Assembly (NCBI GenBank): GCA_021735045.1
Contig: JAIPHU010000010.1
Location: 10,468-42,467, forward strand
Source of the DNA: Candidatus Omnitrophota bacterium
GTDB lineage: Bacteria; Omnitrophota; Gorgyraeia; Duberdicusellales; 4484-171
Length of the DNA: 32,000 bases
Direction: 5' to 3'
The notes under the pieces are model-generated. The model did no database searches, was not told the origin of the DNA, and saw only the letters and a program-made list of their open reading frames with translations. The translations under genes were made by a program, and so were the position numbers. Positions 2,125 to 30,094 of this stretch are shown here, in pieces (within the stretch, counting starts at the first letter, position 1; each line of letters opens with the position of its first letter).

Positions 2125-3390
2125 ATGATTAACAGATTAAAAAAATTAAATCCCCAATTCAGAAACATTTTAAAAATATCCTCAAGGTTAGCTAAAAAAT
2201 CAGATTATAATATCTATTTAGTTGGAGGAGTAGTAAGAGATCTATTGCTTAATCGGCCTGTGTTTGACCTAGATATAGTGGTTGAAGGTGACGCTATATC
2301 CTTGGTCAGGCAGTTGGCAAAGCGGCTCAAGATAGATTTTCGAAGACATCATAGTTTTGGTACAGCAACTTTATCTTATCAGGGGCATAAAATAGATTTT
2401 GCTACAGCTCGTAAGGAACGATATCCTCATCCTGGTTCATTGCCAAAAGTAAAACCATCTTCTTTAGAAAAAGATCTAATTAGAAGAGATTTTTCTATAA
2501 ATGCCATGGCAATAAGTATAAATAAAAAAAATTATGGCCAGTTGATAGATTTTTATCACGGGCGTCGAGATTTAAAAAATGGATTAATTCGAATATTATA
2601 TTCGGAAAGTTTTTTCGATGATTCTTTAAGAATCTTACGTGCTGTTAGGTTCCAACAACGTTTTTCTTTTAAGATAGAAACAAAAACCTATGCATTAATG
2701 AAACAAGCTATCGGCGCGGGAGCTTTACAATGGATTAATCCTCATCGCCTTAGAGATGAATTAATTCTTTTTTTAGATGAAACTAATCCTTATCGATATA
2801 TAAAAAGATTTTACTTACTTGAGAAGTTTAATTTTATAAATAAACGAATAAAGTTAAATAAGAAAGAGTTTAATTTCTTCATCAGGGCTCAAGCTGCAAT
2901 TAGATTTTATAATAAAACATTTAGCAATAAAGATAAAATTAAAAGATGGTCAATATTTTTGGCTGGTATTTTAGTGAATTTATCTTATCGTGAAGTTATT
3001 GAAGTTACCAATAGATTTGGGTTTAAAAAAGATGAAAGGTTAATTATTAGCTCAATAAAGAAAGATATAGGCAAGATAAAAAAGTTAGATAGAAAGTTAA
3101 AGCCCAGTGTTATTTATAAAATCTTAACCGGTTATAGCCGGGAAGCACTGATCTTTTTTTATGCTTATTTTCCCAGAAAAAAAATACGGAGTAATATAAT
3201 CTTTTTTCTAAAAGATCTATCAGGCCAAAAGTTAAAGATTAAAGGAAAAGACTTACAGAAGATGGGGGTTGAGTCATCGTCCTTTATGGGCAAAACACTA
3301 AAGAAACTATTTTTTTTGAAGTTAGATAAGAACTTAAAGACAAAACGTCAGGAGATAAAAGAGGTAAAAAAAATAGTTAAAATAAAATAA
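2125..3390 (+). CDS. CCA-adding enzyme / poly(A) polymerase family nucleotidyltransferase
   Basis: Head-domain motifs YLVGGVVRDLLL and DLDIVV, followed by RRDFSINAMA. No C-terminal HD domain is seen. The tail is K-rich. Confidence 0.8.
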   Translation: MINRLKKLNPQFRNILKISSRLAKKSDYNIYLVGGVVRDLLLNRPVFDLDIVVEGDAISLVRQLAKRLKIDFRRHHSFGTATLSYQGHKIDFATARKERYPHPGSLPKVKPSSLEKDLIRRDFSINAMAISINKKNYGQLIDFYHGRRDLKNGLIRILYSESFFDDSLRILRAVRFQQRFSFKIETKTYALMKQAIGAGALQWINPHRLRDELILFLDETNPYRYIKRFYLLEKFNFINKRIKLNKKEFNFFIRAQAAIRFYNKTFSNKDKIKRWSIFLAGILVNLSYREVIEVTNRFGFKKDERLIISSIKKDIGKIKKLDRKLKPSVIYKILTGYSREALIFFYAYFPRKKIRSNIIFFLKDLSGQKLKIKGKDLQKMGVESSSFMGKTLKKLFFLKLDKNLKTKRQEIKEVKKIVKIK

Positions 3391-3484: not shown

Positions 3485-3838
3485 ATGTCGGTAAGAATAG
3501 ACAAAATCAATACAGAAATGCGTAAGCAAATTATGAAAATAGTTCAACAAGAGATTGATGACCCGAATGTAGGGTTGGTGACTATAACTAAAGTGGATAC
3601 CAAACCTGACCTAGAAGAAGCTAAAGTTTATTTTAGTATTTTAGATCAAACCAAGCAAAAAAAAGTAAAAGAGACATTAGATAAGATGAAAGGTTTTATC
3701 AAGGTATTATTAGCAAGGAAAATAAGATTAAAAAAAATACCTGAGTTAGTATTTCAGTTAGATGAATCAATAAAATATAGTGTAGATATCTACCAAAAAA
3801 TAGAGGAGTTAAAGGATGAAGAGGGCAAAGATCAGTAA
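3485..3838 (+). CDS. rbfA: ribosome-binding factor A
   Basis: 117 aa. RIDKINTEMRKQIMKIVQQEIDDPNVGLVTITKVDTKPDLEEAKVYFSIL matches the RbfA KH-like consensus. The rbfA-truB-ribF neighbourhood supports the call. Confidence 0.9.
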   Translation: MSVRIDKINTEMRKQIMKIVQQEIDDPNVGLVTITKVDTKPDLEEAKVYFSILDQTKQKKVKETLDKMKGFIKVLLARKIRLKKIPELVFQLDESIKYSVDIYQKIEELKDEEGKDQ

Positions 3839-4784
3839 AATAAAAAAGATAGTTGAGTTAATTAAAAATAATAACAGTTTTTTAATAACTGCTCATATGA
3901 ACTTAGAGGGAGACGCTTTAGGTTCTGAGTTGTCTTTATTTCTTTTGCTTAAAAAATTAAATAAAAAAGTTACAGTTTATAATCATGATGCCACTCCTGA
4001 TGTTTATAAATTTCTTCCCAAACATAAACTTATAAAAAATAATTTTAAAAAAGGAAAAATTGATCTGGCTTTTGTTTTGGATTGTTCGGACTCTTCTCGT
4101 GCCGGCAAGGTGGAAGATAAGTTAAATGATGCTGGTAATGTAGTAAATATTGACCATCACATCAGTAATACTTTTTTTGGAGACCTAAACTGGGTAGAGC
4201 CAAAGATGAGTTCTGCCTCAGAGATGATTTATCATTTAGCTAAGGAAATGAGAATTATGGATAAAAATATTGCTCTTTGCATATATACGGGTATTTTTAC
4301 AGATACAGGTAGTTTTAGTTATGCAAATACAAGTCCTGATACCCACAGGATAGTGTCAGAGTTAATGAAGTTTAATATTAAACCTCATCTCATTGATAAG
4401 GAAATTCATAGTTTGTGTGTACCAGATGATATTGATTTTATTGGTAAATGCATATCAAGGTTAAAATTTGCTCCTGGCCAGAAGATATCTTGGATAACTA
4501 TCTCTAGATGGCAGAAAAAAAACTATGATCTTACGGAAATAATTTTCTCTATAATGAAACTTTTAAAAAAACCTGAGGTTTTTGTTATTTTTAAAAGAAT
4601 AAGTAAAGATAGAACTAGAATTAATTTCCGTTCTTGCTCGAAGCTGGATGTAAACAAGGTTGCTAAGTTTTTTGGAGGAGGAGGGCATAAGAGAGCTAGC
4701 GGCACAACCTTAAACAAGAATTTAAAAGAATCCGAGAAAAAGGTGATTAATTTTATTAAGGGGTGCCTAAATGGCAAAAAATAA
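3816..4784 (+). CDS. nrnA: DHH/DHHA1 family phosphoesterase (NrnA-like oligoribonuclease / pAp phosphatase)
   Basis: DHH motif NIDHHISN, DxD-type motif GDALGS, and DHHA1 GGGGH near the C-terminus. Its position between rbfA and truB is common for NrnA-like genes. Confidence 0.8.
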   Translation: MKRAKISKIKKIVELIKNNNSFLITAHMNLEGDALGSELSLFLLLKKLNKKVTVYNHDATPDVYKFLPKHKLIKNNFKKGKIDLAFVLDCSDSSRAGKVEDKLNDAGNVVNIDHHISNTFFGDLNWVEPKMSSASEMIYHLAKEMRIMDKNIALCIYTGIFTDTGSFSYANTSPDTHRIVSELMKFNIKPHLIDKEIHSLCVPDDIDFIGKCISRLKFAPGQKISWITISRWQKKNYDLTEIIFSIMKLLKKPEVFVIFKRISKDRTRINFRSCSKLDVNKVAKFFGGGGHKRASGTTLNKNLKESEKKVINFIKGCLNGKK

Positions 4785-6940: not shown

Positions 6941-7026
6941 ATCAACGAATATACGAATTAATTACGAATTTGCGAATGAAAGTTTATTAAATTCGTATAT
7001 TCGTATAGATTAGTAAATTCGTTGAT
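6941..7026. repeat. palindromic short-motif array (RCGAAT x4 then ATTCGT x3)
   Basis: ACGAAT at 6945, 6953 and 6964, and GCGAAT at 6972. ATTCGT at 6991, 6999 and 7017. There is a perfect 15-bp inverted repeat 6945-6959 / 6990-7004 with a 30-nt loop. An alternative 10-bp pairing is 6941-6950 / 7017-7026. Confidence 0.85.
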
Positions 7027-7072: not shown

Positions 7073-7255
7073 ATGAGTAGAGGTGTTAGTAAAAAAAGAA
7101 GTAGGCACTCAAAAAGTAAGAGCGATCAAAAAGTGCTTGTAGGTTCTTCTATAGTTCACCTTTCAGGATTTTCTCTTTGTGCTGGAAAATCAGGAGAGTT
7201 AGATTTAACTTCATTAAGTAGTAAGCAAATCAGAAAAAAAATCGGATGGCTCTAA
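7073..7255 (+). CDS. small basic hypothetical protein (60 aa) between mraZ and rsmH
   Basis: AGGAGG at 7063-7068 lies 4 nt before ATG 7073. The stop at 7253-7255 is 3 nt before the rsmH ATG. The protein MSRGVSKKRSRHSKSKSDQK... has a K/R/S-rich N-terminus. The ORF-track start TTG 7022 lacks an SD and overlaps the repeat region. I recognise no family. Confidence 0.5.
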   Translation: MSRGVSKKRSRHSKSKSDQKVLVGSSIVHLSGFSLCAGKSGELDLTSLSSKQIRKKIGWL

Positions 7256-7258
7256 TTT

Positions 7259-13059: not shown

Positions 13060-13068
13060 TGGTACAAT
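13060..13068 (+). promoter_or_regulatory. possible extended -10 element TGgTACAAT
   Basis: TG at 13060-13061 and TACAAT at 13063-13068, just after the murF stop and before the palindromic element. No -35 is seen. Confidence 0.3.
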
Positions 13069-13073
13069 ATAAA

Positions 13074-13146
13074 TTAGCTCATAGCTGATGGCTCATGGTT
13101 GATAGTTAATTATTTCTCAACTAAGAGCTATGAGCCAAGAGCTAAG
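13074..13146. repeat. palindromic short-motif element (GCTCAT / ATGAGC family) upstream of mraY
   Basis: Nested complementary segments: TTAGCTC 13074-13080 / GAGCTAA 13139-13145, GGCTCAT 13090-13096 / ATGAGCC 13130-13136, and GTTGA 13098-13102 / TCAAC 13117-13121. An alternative 10-bp pairing is GCTCATAGCT 13077-13086 / AGCTATGAGC 13126-13135. Confidence 0.75.
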
Positions 13147-13157
13147 AACCAATTATT

Positions 13158-14240
13158 ATGCTTTACCATCTACTATATCCATTATCAAAATATTTTTTTA
13201 TTTTCAATGTCACCAGATATATTACTTTTCGCAGTGGATGTGCGTTTTTTACTTCTTTTTTTCTCGTCTTTCTTTTTTGGCGTCCGCTGATAAAAAGACT
13301 TCATAAGATGCAGATTGTAGAAAATATTGATATGTATGGGCACCTGCATCTTGAAAAGCTACATAAAGATAAAAAAGGTACTCCTACCATGGGTGGGCTG
13401 TTGATTGTTTTTTCAATGTTTCTCTCTAGTTTAATCTGGGCTAGATTAGACAATTTTTTGGTATGGGTAGTATTATTTACTATGGGAGCTTTGGCTCTTT
13501 TAGGTTTTATTGATGATTCTTTAAAAATAAAAAAAGGGAAAGGATTAACTCGTCTCCAGAAGTTATTATGGCAAAGCCTGGTTGGTTTAGCTTTAGGTAC
13601 CTTTATAGTTTTATATAAAGGTATAGAGCCTAGCTGGAGCTTACCTTTTTTTAAAAGTGTAGTATTAAATTTAGGATATTTTTATATTTTTTGGGCTGTT
13701 TGTTTAATAGTAGCTACATCCAATGCAGTAAATTTTACTGACGGCCTTGATGGTTTAGCTATAGGCAGTTTGATTATTAATGCAGTGATTTTTTCGTTAT
13801 TAGCTTATTTGGTGGGCAACCTAAAATTTGCTGACTATCTTTTTATTCCTTATATAAAGGGTGCAGGAGAATTAACTGTTATAACATTGAGCTTAGCAGG
13901 TTCTGGCTTAGCTTTTCTTTGGTTTAACTCTTATCCGGCTCAAGTTTTTATGGGGGATGTAGGGGCATTAGCTTTAGGAGGAGTTATAGGGGCAGTTGCT
14001 TTAATTATAAAGAAAGAATTTATTCTTTTTATTAGTGGAGGGCTGTTTGTAATTGAAGCATTGAGTGTAATTTTACAGATAACATCTGTGAAATTAAGAA
14101 AAAAGAGGATATTTAAAGCTGCTCCGATTCACCATCATTTTCAAATCAAAGGTTGGCCGGAACCAAAGATAATCGTTCGTTTTTGGATTATTACAATAAT
14201 CTGCGCTTGTTTAGCTTTACTTACCCTTAAGCTTCGGTAG
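13158..14240 (+). CDS. mraY: phospho-N-acetylmuramoyl-pentapeptide-transferase
   Basis: Polytopic membrane protein with KKGTPTMGG, NAVNFTDGLDGLA and the HHHF motif. Confidence 0.97.
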   Translation: MLYHLLYPLSKYFFIFNVTRYITFRSGCAFFTSFFLVFLFWRPLIKRLHKMQIVENIDMYGHLHLEKLHKDKKGTPTMGGLLIVFSMFLSSLIWARLDNFLVWVVLFTMGALALLGFIDDSLKIKKGKGLTRLQKLLWQSLVGLALGTFIVLYKGIEPSWSLPFFKSVVLNLGYFYIFWAVCLIVATSNAVNFTDGLDGLAIGSLIINAVIFSLLAYLVGNLKFADYLFIPYIKGAGELTVITLSLAGSGLAFLWFNSYPAQVFMGDVGALALGGVIGAVALIIKKEFILFISGGLFVIEALSVILQITSVKLRKKRIFKAAPIHHHFQIKGWPEPKIIVRFWIITIICACLALLTLKLR

Positions 14241-26944: not shown

Positions 26945-28069
26945 ATGATTAAAAAACCAATAATTCATATTTTTCATATTTCTGATTTTGGTGGGCACAG
27001 CCAAGCTGCCTTAAACATTAAAGAGGCCATTTTAGCTAAAGATAACAATGCTAAAGTTGTAAATTTAAATAGTTTCCAGTATTTCTATCCTCGTACAGAA
27101 AAAGTAGTGGATGCTATTTATAAACTAGTAATTAAACAAATTCCTTCTCTTTGGGGCAAAGCTTATGACCATGAAACAGTAGTTAAGCGCCTCAGGCCTT
27201 GGCATAAAGTTGTTAATCATATTTGTTTTCCCAAATTACGTAAATATATAAAGTTTGAAAAACCAAATTGTTTTATTACCACTCAAGCTTTTCCTTGTGG
27301 AATAATTGCTGATTATAAAAAAAAGCATAAGCCAGACATACCCTTAATTGCTGTAGTTACTGATTTTCATCCGCATCGTTTTTGGGTGCATTCATCTGTT
27401 GATCATTATGTAGTTGCTTCAGACGAAGCAAAAAATACATTAGTTAAAGAAGGTGTAGCCGAAGATAAGGTATCAGTTTTTGGAATCCCTATATCTATCA
27501 AGTTTATTAAAAGCTCTTTTGACAGTGAGCCTATAGAAAAATTAGGCCTTTCTTCTCAGCGAAAATCAGTTCTAGTTATGGGGGGTGGCTTAGGTATCGG
27601 GCCAATTGAAAAAATTGTAAGAAATCTTGATCAATTAAACCATGATTTTCAACTAATTGTAGTCTGTGGTAAAAACAGATTTCTTTACCGCAAATTAGAA
27701 AAAATAAAAAATAAAATAAAAAAACCACTATTTATTTTTAGCTATGTGGAATATGTAGATAAAATTATGGATTTTTCTGACATTATTATTACTAAAGCCG
27801 GTGGGATTACTGTATCTGAGGCTTTAGCAAAAAGAATAGCAATAATAATTACAAACCCCATCCCCGGCCAAGAAGAGTTGAACGTTGATTTTTTAATTAG
27901 GCGCAATGCAATTATAAAAGCAGATGGCTTTAAACAAATAAATAAAAATGTAGCTAGCTTAATTGAAAATTCCGATAAGCTGAGATTTTTTAAAAAAAAT
28001 GCTGAAGAAAATTCCCAGGGAAACTCTTCAGCCAAAATTGCTGACTTAATCTTTAAATTTATTAACTGA
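26945..28069 (+). CDS. MGDG-synthase / UgtP-like diacylglycerol glycosyltransferase (GT28)
   Basis: N-terminal MGDG_synth-type region (ISDFGGHSQAALNIKEAI, VTDFHPHRFWVH..VDHYVVAS) and C-terminal GT28 region (VMGGGLGIG, ITKAGGITVSEALA, PIPGQEELN). Confidence 0.85.
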   Translation: MIKKPIIHIFHISDFGGHSQAALNIKEAILAKDNNAKVVNLNSFQYFYPRTEKVVDAIYKLVIKQIPSLWGKAYDHETVVKRLRPWHKVVNHICFPKLRKYIKFEKPNCFITTQAFPCGIIADYKKKHKPDIPLIAVVTDFHPHRFWVHSSVDHYVVASDEAKNTLVKEGVAEDKVSVFGIPISIKFIKSSFDSEPIEKLGLSSQRKSVLVMGGGLGIGPIEKIVRNLDQLNHDFQLIVVCGKNRFLYRKLEKIKNKIKKPLFIFSYVEYVDKIMDFSDIIITKAGGITVSEALAKRIAIIITNPIPGQEELNVDFLIRRNAIIKADGFKQINKNVASLIENSDKLRFFKKNAEENSQGNSSAKIADLIFKFIN

Positions 28070-28905
28070 TGTACTATCTCTTTATCTTAGGAAAAATAAT
28101 CGCTTTAGCCGGGCCGCGGGCGGTTTCTTATCGAATTGCTAAGTTTTTTGCTTTACTTCATTGCTGCTTTTCCAAGAAAGATAGGGAGGCAGTCCTTTAT
28201 AATTTAGGACCTTTGGTCAGACAAAGACAAAGAAAAAAAAAGGTGGCAAAAAAGGTTTTTATTAACTTTGCCTACTATCTTACTGATTTTTTTCGTTATT
28301 CAAGATTGACCAAAAAGTTTATTAAAAAATACGTTAGTTTTGGAGGCCTAGATTTAGTTGATAAAATAGTCAAGGAAAAAAGAGGAGCGATACTGCTTAC
28401 CGCTCATTTAGGTAACTATGAATTAGGCGGGGCGGTTATGTCGTTGCTTGGCTATCCTCTATCAGTTGTTGCATTGCCGCATCTTGACCTGCGTACTAAT
28501 ATTTTTTTTAACCGGCAACGCAAGAGGGTGGGTATAGATGTTATTCCTACTGGAGTTGCAATAAAAAAAACCATCAAAGCTTTGAATCAAGGAAGGCTTT
28601 TGGCCTTACTTGGTGATAGGGATTTTTCACATTCCGGGAGGCGGCAAAAAGTCTTTTCGCGTTTTGCAGAAATTCCGCGGGGAGTGGCTTTTTTTGCAAA
28701 AAAGACCGCTGCAGCAGTAGTCCCTACTTTTTTTGTCCGAGAAAACAAATATCATTACCGGCTTATCTTTGAAAATGAGATTGAGTATGATCGGGAAAAT
28801 GAAAATGTTGAAGAAGATATACTTCAAAAATATGTAGCTGTATTAGAAAAATACTTAAAAAAATATCCCGACCAATGGTATTTATTCCAAAAATACTGGC
28901 AATAA
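28069..28905 (+). CDS. LpxL/HtrB/PatA-family lysophospholipid/glycolipid acyltransferase
   Basis: HX4E active-site motif in TAHLGNYELGG, an N-terminal hydrophobic anchor and a GDRDF segment. Its start overlaps the upstream stop by 1 nt (TGATG). Confidence 0.85.
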   Translation: MYYLFILGKIIALAGPRAVSYRIAKFFALLHCCFSKKDREAVLYNLGPLVRQRQRKKKVAKKVFINFAYYLTDFFRYSRLTKKFIKKYVSFGGLDLVDKIVKEKRGAILLTAHLGNYELGGAVMSLLGYPLSVVALPHLDLRTNIFFNRQRKRVGIDVIPTGVAIKKTIKALNQGRLLALLGDRDFSHSGRRQKVFSRFAEIPRGVAFFAKKTAAAVVPTFFVRENKYHYRLIFENEIEYDRENENVEEDILQKYVAVLEKYLKKYPDQWYLFQKYWQ

Positions 28906-28910
28906 AATTT

Positions 28911-28940
28911 GGTTAATTGGTGAGTGGTTAATTGGTGAGT
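28911..28940 (+). repeat. 2x direct 15-mer GGTTAATTGGTGAGT, ending 4 nt before the four-helix-bundle gene start
   Basis: Copies at 28911-28925 and 28926-28940 are identical. TTGGTTAATTGG (28909-28920) is the exact reverse complement of CCAATTAACCAA in the downstream array. Confidence 0.9.
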
Positions 28941-28944
28941 AGAA

Positions 28945-29316
28945 ATGCAATATAGTTTTGAAAATTTAGAAGTATACAAAGAAGCCCGTGAGTTTAGAAA
29001 GGAAATGTATAAACTAATTAAAGAATTACCTGCTAAAGAAAAATATAATCTTGTAAGCCAAATAAGAAGGGCTTCACTCTCTTTAACTAATTGCATAGCA
29101 GAAGGCCACGGCCGTTACCATTATCAGGAAAATATTCAATTTTTACGTCAATCTAGGGGTTCATTGGAAGAATTAATTGATGATTTAAACACTTGTATTG
29201 ATGAACAATATCTGGAAGAACCTAGATTAAATAAATTAAAAGAAAAAGCTTATGAAGTCTTAAAGAAACTCAATGGCTACATCAAATATTTACGCAGTCA
29301 AAAAAATAAAAATTAG
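28945..29316 (+). CDS. four-helix-bundle protein (23S rRNA intervening-sequence protein / Avd family)
   Basis: 123 aa. FENLEVYKEAREFRKEMYKLIKELPAKEKYNLVSQIRRASLSLTNCIAEGHGR ... QFLRQSRGSLEELIDDL matches the TIGR02436/PF05635-type pattern (F..L.v...A......y.....P..E.y.L..Q.rRAa.Si..NiAEG.gr ... a.GS..E). Confidence 0.9.
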   Translation: MQYSFENLEVYKEAREFRKEMYKLIKELPAKEKYNLVSQIRRASLSLTNCIAEGHGRYHYQENIQFLRQSRGSLEELIDDLNTCIDEQYLEEPRLNKLKEKAYEVLKKLNGYIKYLRSQKNKN

Positions 29317-29332
29317 GTAGATAGCAATAATT

Positions 29333-29341
29333 TGATATAAT
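29333..29341 (+). promoter_or_regulatory. extended -10 element TGaTATAAT between the four-helix-bundle gene and the 8-mer array
   Basis: TG at 29333-29334 and TATAAT at 29336-29341. No convincing -35 is seen. Confidence 0.4.
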
Positions 29342-29346
29342 CCTTA

Positions 29347-29426
29347 TTAACCAATTAACCAATTAACCAATTAACCAATTAACCAATTAACCAATTAACC
29401 AATTAACCAATTAACCAATTAACCAA
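29347..29426 (+). repeat. perfect tandem repeat (TTAACCAA)x10
   Basis: Ten uninterrupted identical 8-bp units from 29347 to 29426, ending 2 nt before ATG 29429 of the GT2 gene. All three frames hit TAA, so it is non-coding. Confidence 0.98.
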
Positions 29427-29428
29427 GC

Positions 29429-30094
29429 ATGCAAATTTGGGCCATAATTCCCGCTTACAATGAAGCTGATGATTTGGGTGAGTTTCTCACTAAAATAAAA
29501 GAGAAAAACTTATCGATTTTGGTGGTTGATGATGGCTCAACTGACAATAGTTATCAAGTGGCTAAAAGAGAGGCTGATCTGGTAATCAAAAATCAAACCA
29601 ATTTTGGTAAAGGCCTGGCTTTACGCAAAGGCATAGATTATTTAATTAATAATAAATATTTTGACTATCTGATTACCATGGATGCGGATGGCCAGCATAG
29701 CCCAGATGATTTAGATAAGTTTATCGGTGAAACTAAGCAGGGGAGCTTATTTGTGATTGGAAATAGAATGGAAAATCCTGATCAGATGCCAAAAACAAGG
29801 ATTATCACTAATTATTTTATGTCTTGGTTGATCTCAAAAATAGCCGGTCAATCTATCCCTGATTCCCAGTGTGGTTATCGTTTGATCAAAAGAGAAGTTA
29901 TAGAAAATCTAACTATAAAAACAAAAAAATTCGAGATAGAGTCAGAAATGTTAATCAATGCTTCAAAATTAGGCTATCCAATAAGAAGTATTCCGATTAA
30001 AAGTATCTATTACAAAAATGTATCCAGTAAAATAAAACCAATTTCGGATAGTTTCCGTTTTATTAAATTTATTTTAAGGTTAAAAGATGGATAA
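29429..30094 (+). CDS. family 2 glycosyltransferase (polyprenyl-phosphate glycosyltransferase-like)
   Basis: IIPAYNEA, VVDDGSTDNS, the DxD motif in MDADGQH, and QCGYRLIKR. It is a soluble protein of about 220 aa. Confidence 0.88.
   Translation: MQIWAIIPAYNEADDLGEFLTKIKEKNLSILVVDDGSTDNSYQVAKREADLVIKNQTNFGKGLALRKGIDYLINNKYFDYLITMDADGQHSPDDLDKFIGETKQGSLFVIGNRMENPDQMPKTRIITNYFMSWLISKIAGQSIPDSQCGYRLIKREVIENLTIKTKKFEIESEMLINASKLGYPIRSIPIKSIYYKNVSSKIKPISDSFRFIKFILRLKDG

Follow-up and report, generated by a model that had tools for sequence, protein, structure and literature searches.

The element analyzed here is a gene enclosed by two complementary arrays of short repeats, located at positions 28906 to 29428 of a 32,000-nucleotide stretch of Candidatus Omnitrophota bacterium DNA (assembly GCA_021735045.1, contig JAIPHU010000010.1, positions 10,468 to 42,467 of the forward strand), hereafter called the window. 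Its closest described counterparts are the intervening sequences (IVSs) of 23S rRNA. In the 23S IVS of Coxiella burnetii, an S23p open reading frame (ORF) occupies the loop of a 28-bp terminal stem, and two to four tandem copies of GACAGAT, their number depending on the strain, lie directly 5' of its ATG (PMC4990558). RNase III cuts within the stem, removing a putative Shine-Dalgarno sequence that lies in it. 23S IVSs are distributed sporadically, suggesting horizontal transfer, and versions with a decaying ORF or without any ORF exist (PMC4990558).

The window element follows the same design. As in the 23S IVSs of Coxiella and Leptospira, it carries an ORF of the PF05635 family in the loop of a terminal-inverted-repeat stem. 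As in Coxiella, short tandem units stand just before the ATG and appear to vary in copy number; the last of them, GGTGAG, is Shine-Dalgarno-like here. Presence is likewise sporadic, and orthologous sites without the insert exist for the window cassette type. However, the host here is an operon mRNA, between a stop and a start codon, and not the tip of 23S helix 45, 25, or 9. In addition, RNase III excision, demonstrated for rRNA IVSs, is a predicted step for the window cassette, and the Coxiella ORF is decaying and probably untranslated, whereas the window-family protein is under strong purifying selection. Judged from its sequence, the element departs from the 23S IVSs only in its defining location, and was therefore filed as an IVS-type cassette in mRNA, belonging to a very large family.

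A precedent in mRNA is found at the hmw locus of Haemophilus influenzae, where an (ATCTTTC)n tract is transcribed and makes up one arm of a hairpin in the 5' untranslated region that is processed by RNase III (Rapun-Araiz et al. 2025, PMC12721329). Changes in repeat number at this locus require the hairpin, transcription, and RNase III (PMC12721329). The window element shares with hmw a tandem array in a predicted mRNA hairpin arm, an apparently variable repeat number, and a position directly 5' of a surface-related gene. It differs from hmw, where the loop contains no gene, only one arm is an array, and the arrangement is a single locus in one species that has not spread horizontally.

Intergenic heptamer arrays, known as STRR or LSSR, have been catalogued without a function, including GGGAATC in Xanthomonas, GGGGAYT in Nostoc, and TAACTGA in Beggiatoaceae, Cyanobacteria, and Bacteroidetes (PMC4692102, PMC4679880). 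Their copy number and sequence differ between close relatives, and Xanthomonas contains 70 to 75 convergent (inverted) array pairs able to form stem-loops. The terms "four helix" and "S23" are absent from the main texts of both papers, which draw no link to 23S IVSs or to insert/empty-site polymorphism. Like the arrays of the window, they consist of tandem 7-nt intergenic units, often lie between co-oriented genes, and abut start codons. However, one motif dominates those genomes, whereas every hairpin here has its own. Short hairpin elements in spacers are also known from the REP/REPIN-RAYT system, in which the RAYT gene is flanked by the same repeats in inverted orientation and the short spacer hairpins are co-transcribed with their neighbors, and from the Correia elements of Neisseria, hairpin-type MITEs (miniature transposable elements with inverted repeats) that are reportedly RNase III substrates. 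The resemblance lies in the hairpins and, for RAYT, in a protein gene between inverted repeats. In contrast to these systems, the cassette has no IS200-like or other recombinase domain, and its arms are tandem micro-arrays instead of a fixed palindrome, with motifs that differ from hairpin to hairpin in one genome.

In the present analysis, the left arm, the four-helix-bundle gene, and the right arm were found to form one unit, which travels and diverges together. The arms are inverted arrays of slippage-prone 7- to 8-nt motifs, G/T-rich on the 5' side and A/C-rich on the 3' side. Orthologous sites either carry the unit or lack it; it is spread between phyla and is placed exactly between the stop and start codons of operons, usually in the same orientation as both neighbors. 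We consider it probable, judging from these sequence features, that the element is an IVS-type selfish cassette residing in operon mRNA, which would be co-transcribed with its host operon and cut by RNase III. The design recurs in at least ten phyla, which points to a type of mobile element that is widespread and largely undescribed. Our full-text literature search turned up no account of array-flanked PF05635 cassettes outside rRNA; an earlier mention in Ralph & McClelland 1993 or Elhai 2008 is possible.

The cassette in the window

The 523-bp gap between the acyltransferase stop codon and the GT2 glycosyltransferase ATG contains a single ORF and is organized as follows. Positions are window coordinates, on the + strand unless stated otherwise.

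28903..28905, +: stop codon of the lipid-A-type acyltransferase gene (28069-28905), the host gene on the upstream side; the left arm begins at the next base.
28906..28941, +: left (5') arm, AATTT plus 2x GGTTAATTGGTGAGT (the latter at 28911-28940), equal to four 7- to 8-nt units, G+T-rich; read from the sequence, with homology to locus L002 (below) beginning exactly here and a pairing probability with the right flank of 0.999.
28934..28939, +: GGTGAG, Shine-Dalgarno-like, 6 nt 5' of the ATG and the last unit of the left arm; read from the sequence.
28945..29316, +: cargo gene; its 123-aa four-helix-bundle product belongs to PF05635, the 23S-rRNA-IVS protein family; based on the Pfam profile, the 2GSC match, dN/dS, and homologs.
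29317..29346, +: linker from the gene stop to the right arm, holding TGATATAAT at 29333-29341; read from the sequence.
29347..29426, +: right (3') arm, 10x TTAACCAA, A+C-rich and G-free, the reverse complement of left-arm unit TTGGTTAA; from the sequence and TRF.
29429..29431, +: start codon of the GT2 glycosyltransferase gene (29429-30094), the host gene on the downstream side, 2 nt past the right arm; from the ORF call.

This layout had been proposed in a first-pass annotation made from the letters alone, and all of its sequence statements hold, apart from a promoter function assigned to the linker. The 10 copies of TTAACCAA are all perfect (TRF score, 162). The arms share 13 nt of perfect complementarity (TTGGTTAATTGGT / ACCAATTAACCAA), where 12 bp had been counted before, and the first left unit can pair in 9 registers. 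The extended arms, 28906-28941 and 29345-29380, span 36 nt and are 72% complementary. The window contains 11 matches to the arm motif, where 0.71 would be expected, and all of them lie in the two arms.

To quantify the complementarity of the flanks, an inverted-repeat score was defined as the local alignment of the upstream 100 nt with the reverse complement of the downstream 100 nt. At the window cassette this score is 20, whereas the best of 100 shuffles reached 11.5. RNAduplex energies of paired flanks were dropped as too noisy (shuffles reached about -30 kcal/mol), and strict local alignment and ensemble pair probabilities were used. The long-range stem anticipated by the first-pass annotation is present in the minimum free energy (MFE) fold of 28896-29440, and in the ensemble the summed probability that the best 20 bases of the left arm pair with the right flank is 0.999, compared to 0.31 when the right flank is shuffled. 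Since GGTGAG is the last unit of the left arm, it would be sequestered once the stem pairs.

The TGATATAAT motif, previously read as an outward-facing promoter, does exist at 29333-29341, but the promoter scan found no two-hexamer sigma-70 promoter there, and its TG is not kept in the 88%-identical cassette L002. An Rfam search of 28700-29600 matched no rRNA or other family. The public (NCBI) record to which the window corresponds, contig JAIPHE010000002.1 (L001) from a Candidatus Omnitrophica metagenome-assembled genome (MAG), is identical to the window over the left 10.4 kb and has 1 mismatch in 2.57 kb on the right. The sole difference near the cassette is the copy number of TTAACCAA, which is 10 in the window (29347-29426) and 12 in L001 (10403-10498) and reflects either population heterogeneity or assembly ambiguity.

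The assignment of the 123-aa protein to the 23S-IVS family is firm, as residues 6 to 111 match the profile of PF05635 over positions 1 to 106 of 106 (E, 3.4e-31; 108 bits; cut-off, 33.8). Its sole PDB sequence match is the pentameric four-helix bundle 2GSC (E, 3e-10). Ratios of dN/dS to homologs are 0.05 to 0.12, with synonymous sites saturated, and the protein is under strong purifying selection. Copies that are 70 to 79% identical occur in other phyla, and the family comprises 9,809 clusters at 50% identity. To our knowledge, no function has been described for PF05635 since 1993; it has been noted only as present in some 23S IVSs and as a relative of Avd. No homolog was detected in phage genomes or IMG/VR viral contigs, and therefore no viral vector is evident. 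The 123-aa bundle is the only ORF of the cassette, and the profile search found no transposase or other recombinase domain in it. In a large clustering survey, "23S rRNA IVP" appears among CRISPR-array-associated proteins (PMC10910872); one could speculate that this association stems from flanking 7- to 8-nt arrays mis-detected as CRISPR.

The relationship to Avd concerns the fold. Avd is the accessory protein of diversity-generating retroelements (DGRs), a pentameric four-helix bundle (PMC10053308) and a nucleic-acid-binding helper of a genetic element. The 123-aa protein is a homologous four-helix bundle by its match to the bAvd profile PF22296 (E, 1.8e-5), but its score of 25.6 bits lies under the Pfam cut-off of 40. 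No reverse-transcriptase domain was found in the scanned neighbor genes, and template/variable repeats were not searched for. A DGR was rejected on the bAvd score and the missing reverse-transcriptase domain. The scanned neighbors comprise an HD-domain protein, a monogalactosyldiacylglycerol (MGDG)-synthase-like glycosyltransferase (GT), the acyltransferase, the GT2 gene, PCMT, and a small exporter.

Recurrence and divergence of the cassette

To examine the family more broadly, 80 loci encoding relatives of 31 to 79% identity were fetched, 76 of which were scored for flanks. They belong to Planctomycetota, Bacteroidota, Ignavibacteria, Verrucomicrobiota, Omnitrophota, Elusimicrobia, Calditrichia, Acidobacteriota, Actinomycetota, and a candidate-phyla-radiation (CPR) lineage. 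In L002, an 88%-identical homolog stands in another context, after a polysaccharide flippase gene, with the same left array (three units versus two in the window), the same linker, and the same TTAACCAA array, and the DNA homology to the window begins exactly at the left array. A 78%-identical copy, L003, lies within a gas-vesicle operon of a Thermodesulfovibrionales MAG and has arms of the GGTTAAA type and the TTAACCA/TTACCA type. At nearly all loci, short-motif arrays are found 5' and their reverse complements 3' of the gene. The motif varies by locus and complementarity is kept, as in the following motif pairs.

Left arm GAGGAGTGG, right arm CCACTCC.
Left arm CGTTATTCG, right arm CGAATAACG.
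Left arm GCCACTAGCC, right arm GGCTAGTGGC.
Left arm ATTATTGATTA, right arm TAATCAGTAAT.

The mean inverted-repeat score across the 76 loci is 14.9; shuffles give 7.2, flanks compared in direct orientation 7.8, and flanks combined from different loci 9.6. The best of 100 own shuffles was exceeded in 56 of the 76 loci, and in 32 the own partner flank was among the five best of 76. The mean score of other genes in these loci is 7.7, and their 95th percentile is exceeded by 80% of the four-helix-bundle genes (P = 3e-23). Mutually complementary arrays, which the first-pass annotation had proposed to look for at other family members, are thus found, and their motifs co-vary between loci. In addition, arm similarity rises with protein identity between loci (Spearman, 0.46 and 0.43; 1,540 pairs), and therefore arms and gene diverge together.

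The arms have a median length of 32 nt and a unit period of mostly 7 or 8 nt; of 228 control windows, just 4 were periodic. Unit counts per arm vary from 3 to 12, and arm polarity is fixed, with a G+T-rich 5' arm in 56 of 61 loci. Relative to the end of the upstream gene, the median start of the left arm is -4 nt, and the median distance from the right arm to the next start codon is 10 nt. In 55 of 73 loci, both neighbors have the orientation of the cassette, compared to 58% co-orientation in background gene triplets of the same loci (P = 0.017). Several copies per genome were seen for L013/L019, L025/L033, and L035/L038.

At five loci (L012, L013, L039, L053, and L056), the four-helix-bundle ORF is frameshifted or truncated and the long arms are kept. 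The cargo thus decays while the hairpin is retained, as reported for Coxiella strains. Recurrent junctions across families or phyla were also observed (L008, L015, L032, L036, and L057; also L070/L072; L074-L083; L043-L045 and L063). Examples are the site directly 5' of the S-adenosylhomocysteinase gene (metK-like/ahcY) in Ignavibacteria and Bacteroidota, the thyA-folA junction in Bacteroidales, and the sites 5' of fabD in Chitinophagaceae and 5' of etfA in Planctomycetota. Such recurrence reflects either long vertical residence or site preference. A cassette with AAGGTTY / RAACCTT arrays (L121) lies within the suf operon of the cultured pathogen Riemerella anatipestifer (NZ_CP081938.1), between an iscA-like gene and sufB, and offers a handy experimental system. 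The 102-kb record is labelled plasmid but carries lepA, an iscA-like gene, and sufB, and resembles a chromosomal fragment.

Empty sites and ORF-less array hairpins

In 13 metagenomic relatives, the acyltransferase-GT2 spacer measures 2 to 46 nt and contains no four-helix-bundle gene, which bears out the earlier expectation of empty sites. The gene order is kept in all 13: HD protein, MGDG-synthase-like GT, acyltransferase, GT2, (PCMT), and exporter. The gene is also absent from the closest relatives (acyltransferase, 77 to 84% identical), in which a 115- to 123-nt spacer holds other short-motif arrays or hairpins that differ per genome. In these closest Omnitrophota relatives (L115-L119, 3338-3460), the spacer arrays are GGACGAT/ATCGTCC, (AAGGWTA)x5-6, (TATCTGTNN)x4, and ACGAATTT/ATTCGTA. 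The spacer turns over fast in L115-L119, and AAGGWTA, which is similar to the left arms of other cassettes, may be a remnant. In the 54%-identical relative L086, a 172-nt ORF-less hairpin with GCCGATA-type arrays (3826-3997) occupies the same acyltransferase-GT2 junction (z, -4.9).

Cultured cyanobacteria provide the clearest filled/empty pair, located on complete plasmids. The site is empty in Tolypothrix PCC 7601 and Nostoc carneum, with an integrase gene separated by 3 nt from the next gene. In Calothrix brevissima and Nostoc punctiforme it is filled with a cassette with GGGTGTA / TACACCC arms, and the flanks of filled and empty plasmids are 83 to 92% identical. The insert gives the integrase a new stop codon, ends at the base before the downstream ATG, and replaces about 11 nt of the empty site. 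For the window junction, an 8-nt direct repeat considered as a target-site duplication (AAATTTGG, 28905-28912 / 29433-29440) was rejected, as its right copy lies within the conserved GT2 N-terminus and does not touch the arm.

Beyond what the first-pass annotation reported, such arrays are also found away from the cassette. Similarly built hairpins without an ORF occupy other spacers of the window and of its relatives. Those of the window are the following.

13067..13159, +: ORF-less array hairpin with GCTCATR-type heptamers and their complements; it takes up the intergenic space from a murF-like Mur ligase gene to mraY; dG -34.9, z -5.6.
6941..7026, +: ORF-less array hairpin with ACGAATWT / ATTCGTAT units in the mraZ-rsmH spacer (345-nt gap); from sequence and fold.

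The three hairpins of the window use three unrelated motifs. Downstream (3') of the 6941-7026 hairpin lies a 60-aa ORF (7074-7256) with a strong AGGAGG ribosome-binding site, and the CGAAT motif class of this hairpin also flanks four-helix-bundle genes in Calditrichia (L047, L060) and Phycisphaerales (L067). The window itself (1-32000) comprises the dcw cell-wall/division cluster (mraZ, rsmH, Mur ligases, mraY, ddl, and ftsQ), followed by glycolipid genes, and all 32 of its ORFs of at least 100 aa are on the + strand.

The motif of the local cassette arm is repeated elsewhere within 3 kb in 11 of 54 loci, compared to 5% expected. In L004 and L050, the next spacer of the operon holds complete hairpins with this motif and no ORF. 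In L067 (1128-3555), ACGAATTTT-type arrays form a run of ORF-less hairpins in four consecutive spacers, and therefore msrA and the NAD kinase gene also look bracketed. On plasmid pNPUN01 of N. punctiforme (L124), a 188-nt ORF-less hairpin with the GGGTGTR/YACACCC motifs of the arms is nested inside the four-helix-bundle ORF (alignment columns 447-634; dG -99.8, z -5.8), and therefore ORF-less array hairpins insert as discrete units. A comparable insert of about 120 nt is seen inside the ORF of L067 itself (3220-3340).

Proposed mechanism and rival explanations

The flank, empty-site, and folding checks support the proposal of the first-pass annotation that this is an ORF-in-stem cassette in an mRNA context. 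In the mechanism that we propose, the cassette would lack a promoter of its own and be transcribed by read-through from the glycolipid operon. The arms would pair in the transcript, looping out the gene and bringing the upstream stop and the downstream start close together again. By analogy with the Coxiella 23S IVS and H. influenzae hmw, the duplex of about 30 bp would be cut by RNase III, separating the upstream, cassette, and downstream RNAs. Array copy number would drift by slippage (10 versus 12 here), which may tune GT2 expression as a by-product. Movement might most economically occur by recombination into existing hairpins or stop-start junctions, with the low-complexity arms as homology, and the four-helix-bundle protein might act as a nucleic-acid-binding helper, like its relative Avd. 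It can further be speculated that the A/C-rich 3' arm, which leaves no U-tract after the hairpin on either strand, would avoid the formation of an intrinsic terminator.

Several observations weigh against this reading. Co-orientation with the neighbors is just modestly over background, and the arms are only about 75% complementary family-wide. Their mismatches comprise 119 G.U-compatible and 112 A.C-type positions, with no excess and therefore no sign of selection on RNA over DNA. Family-wide ensemble pairing (0.74, compared to 0.48 for shuffled arms) is real but moderate, and partly reflects complementary base composition. The ORF is kept but one arm is lost in L014, L030, L037, L074, and L076, and the arms are in direct orientation in L016 and L067. 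The stem is therefore not indispensable for retention of the gene. As for mobility, no target-site duplication is present at the cyanobacterial filled/empty junction, the window junction being too diverged to judge, and no recombinase was found, so that movement is deduced from distribution only. The conservation of sites across families or phyla (metK-like/ahcY, thyA-folA, and fabD) argues for long residence over frequent movement.

The missing asymmetry of the mismatches would also be expected of a DNA-level transposable element, whose arms would be terminal inverted repeats, possibly forming cruciform or hairpin DNA, that are read by a recombinase encoded elsewhere or by the bundle protein. 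The ORF-less hairpins would then be MITE-like and the RNA hairpin a by-product. Such an element fits the presence/absence polymorphism, the several copies per genome, the 70 to 79% identical proteins across phyla, the pseudogenized copies, and the ORF-less hairpin nested inside a four-helix-bundle ORF. Terminal inverted repeats are present (about 32 nt, about 75% complementary), but these are low-complexity micro-arrays of variable copy number and not unique, defined ends. Moreover, the protein has no transposase domain, the clean junction shows replacement of about 11 nt of target without a duplication, placement at stop/start junctions is extremely precise, and no copies were found on phages or viral contigs. 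We therefore rate this explanation as possible but rather doubtful. An integron attC cassette was rejected, as the repeats flank the gene, where attC would be one downstream site, and there is no cassette array.

The 7- to 8-nt periodicity could alternatively point to a RAYT/REP-like system of protein plus repeats, in which a pentamer binds the units of its own flanks and of dispersed ORF-less arrays, one per subunit, with the effect of maintaining, spreading, or regulating them. Its substrate would be the heptamer arrays long noted in cyanobacteria, Xanthomonas, Beggiatoaceae, and Bacteroidota. A PF05635 homolog has been described as a homopentameric toroid (Lin 2006, as cited in PMC4990558), and lineages reported as heptamer-rich also carry PF05635 (PMC4692102, PMC4679880). 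The co-divergence of arms and protein, the ORF-less arrays of the same motif near cassettes (L004, L050, and L067), and purifying selection on the protein even where an arm is lost are in line with such a system. However, the three hairpins of one window have three unrelated motifs, the units per arm vary from 3 to 12, and the strongest signal, left-right complementarity, is not required by the model, which makes it unlikely. Improbable, in our view, is a phase-variation (contingency) switch, in which the length of (TTAACCAA)n 5' of GT2 tunes a surface glycolipid and the bundle gene is incidental. The tract does end 2 nt before a glycosyltransferase start codon and differs between otherwise near-identical assemblies (10 versus 12 copies), and the hmw heptamer tract provides a precedent (PMC12721329). 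Yet the difference could be assembly ambiguity, the tract belongs to the cassette and also stands after the gene of L002, in an unrelated context, and such arrays flank family members beside the housekeeping genes thyA-folA, ahcY, fabD, etfA, and suf. Coincidence, with an ordinary host gene lying by chance between two generic simple-sequence repeats, might be suspected from the ORF-less array hairpins in other spacers of the window and in the same spacer of close relatives, as well as from the NAD kinase gene of L067 that also appears bracketed. It is nevertheless extremely improbable, given that complementary flanks are found in 80% of four-helix-bundle genes compared to about 5% of other genes in the same loci, and that the arms move with the gene and co-diverge with its protein.

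The IVS-type cassette reading can be extended, in a tentative and doubtful form, to a widespread, unrecognized class of mobile heptamer-array hairpins for which PF05635 proteins are the trans-acting partner. ORF-containing cassettes would be its autonomous members and ORF-less hairpins its non-autonomous members. The latter would cover many of the heptamer repeats of cyanobacteria, Xanthomonas, Beggiatoaceae, and Bacteroidota, as well as the ORF-less 23S IVSs. A pentamer reading 7- to 8-nt units would promote copying or recombination of hairpins into stop-start junctions and rRNA helix tips.

The same anatomy, with a gene or nothing in the loop, arms of 7- to 8-nt arrays, and placement at operon stop-start junctions, joins the PF05635 family, the repeatedly noted but unexplained over-representation of heptamer repeats in bacterial spacers, and the classical rRNA IVSs. 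ORF-less array hairpins may account for a long-noted class of bacterial repeats, and the arrays are also a feature that breaks assemblies. Direct testing is feasible in the cultured carriers Riemerella, Calothrix, and N. punctiforme. If the cassettes move as they appear to, they would constitute a mobile element without any known recombinase. If RNase III cuts them, they would place a hidden RNA-processing site in thousands of operons in at least ten phyla, including the essential dcw, thyA-folA, and suf operons.

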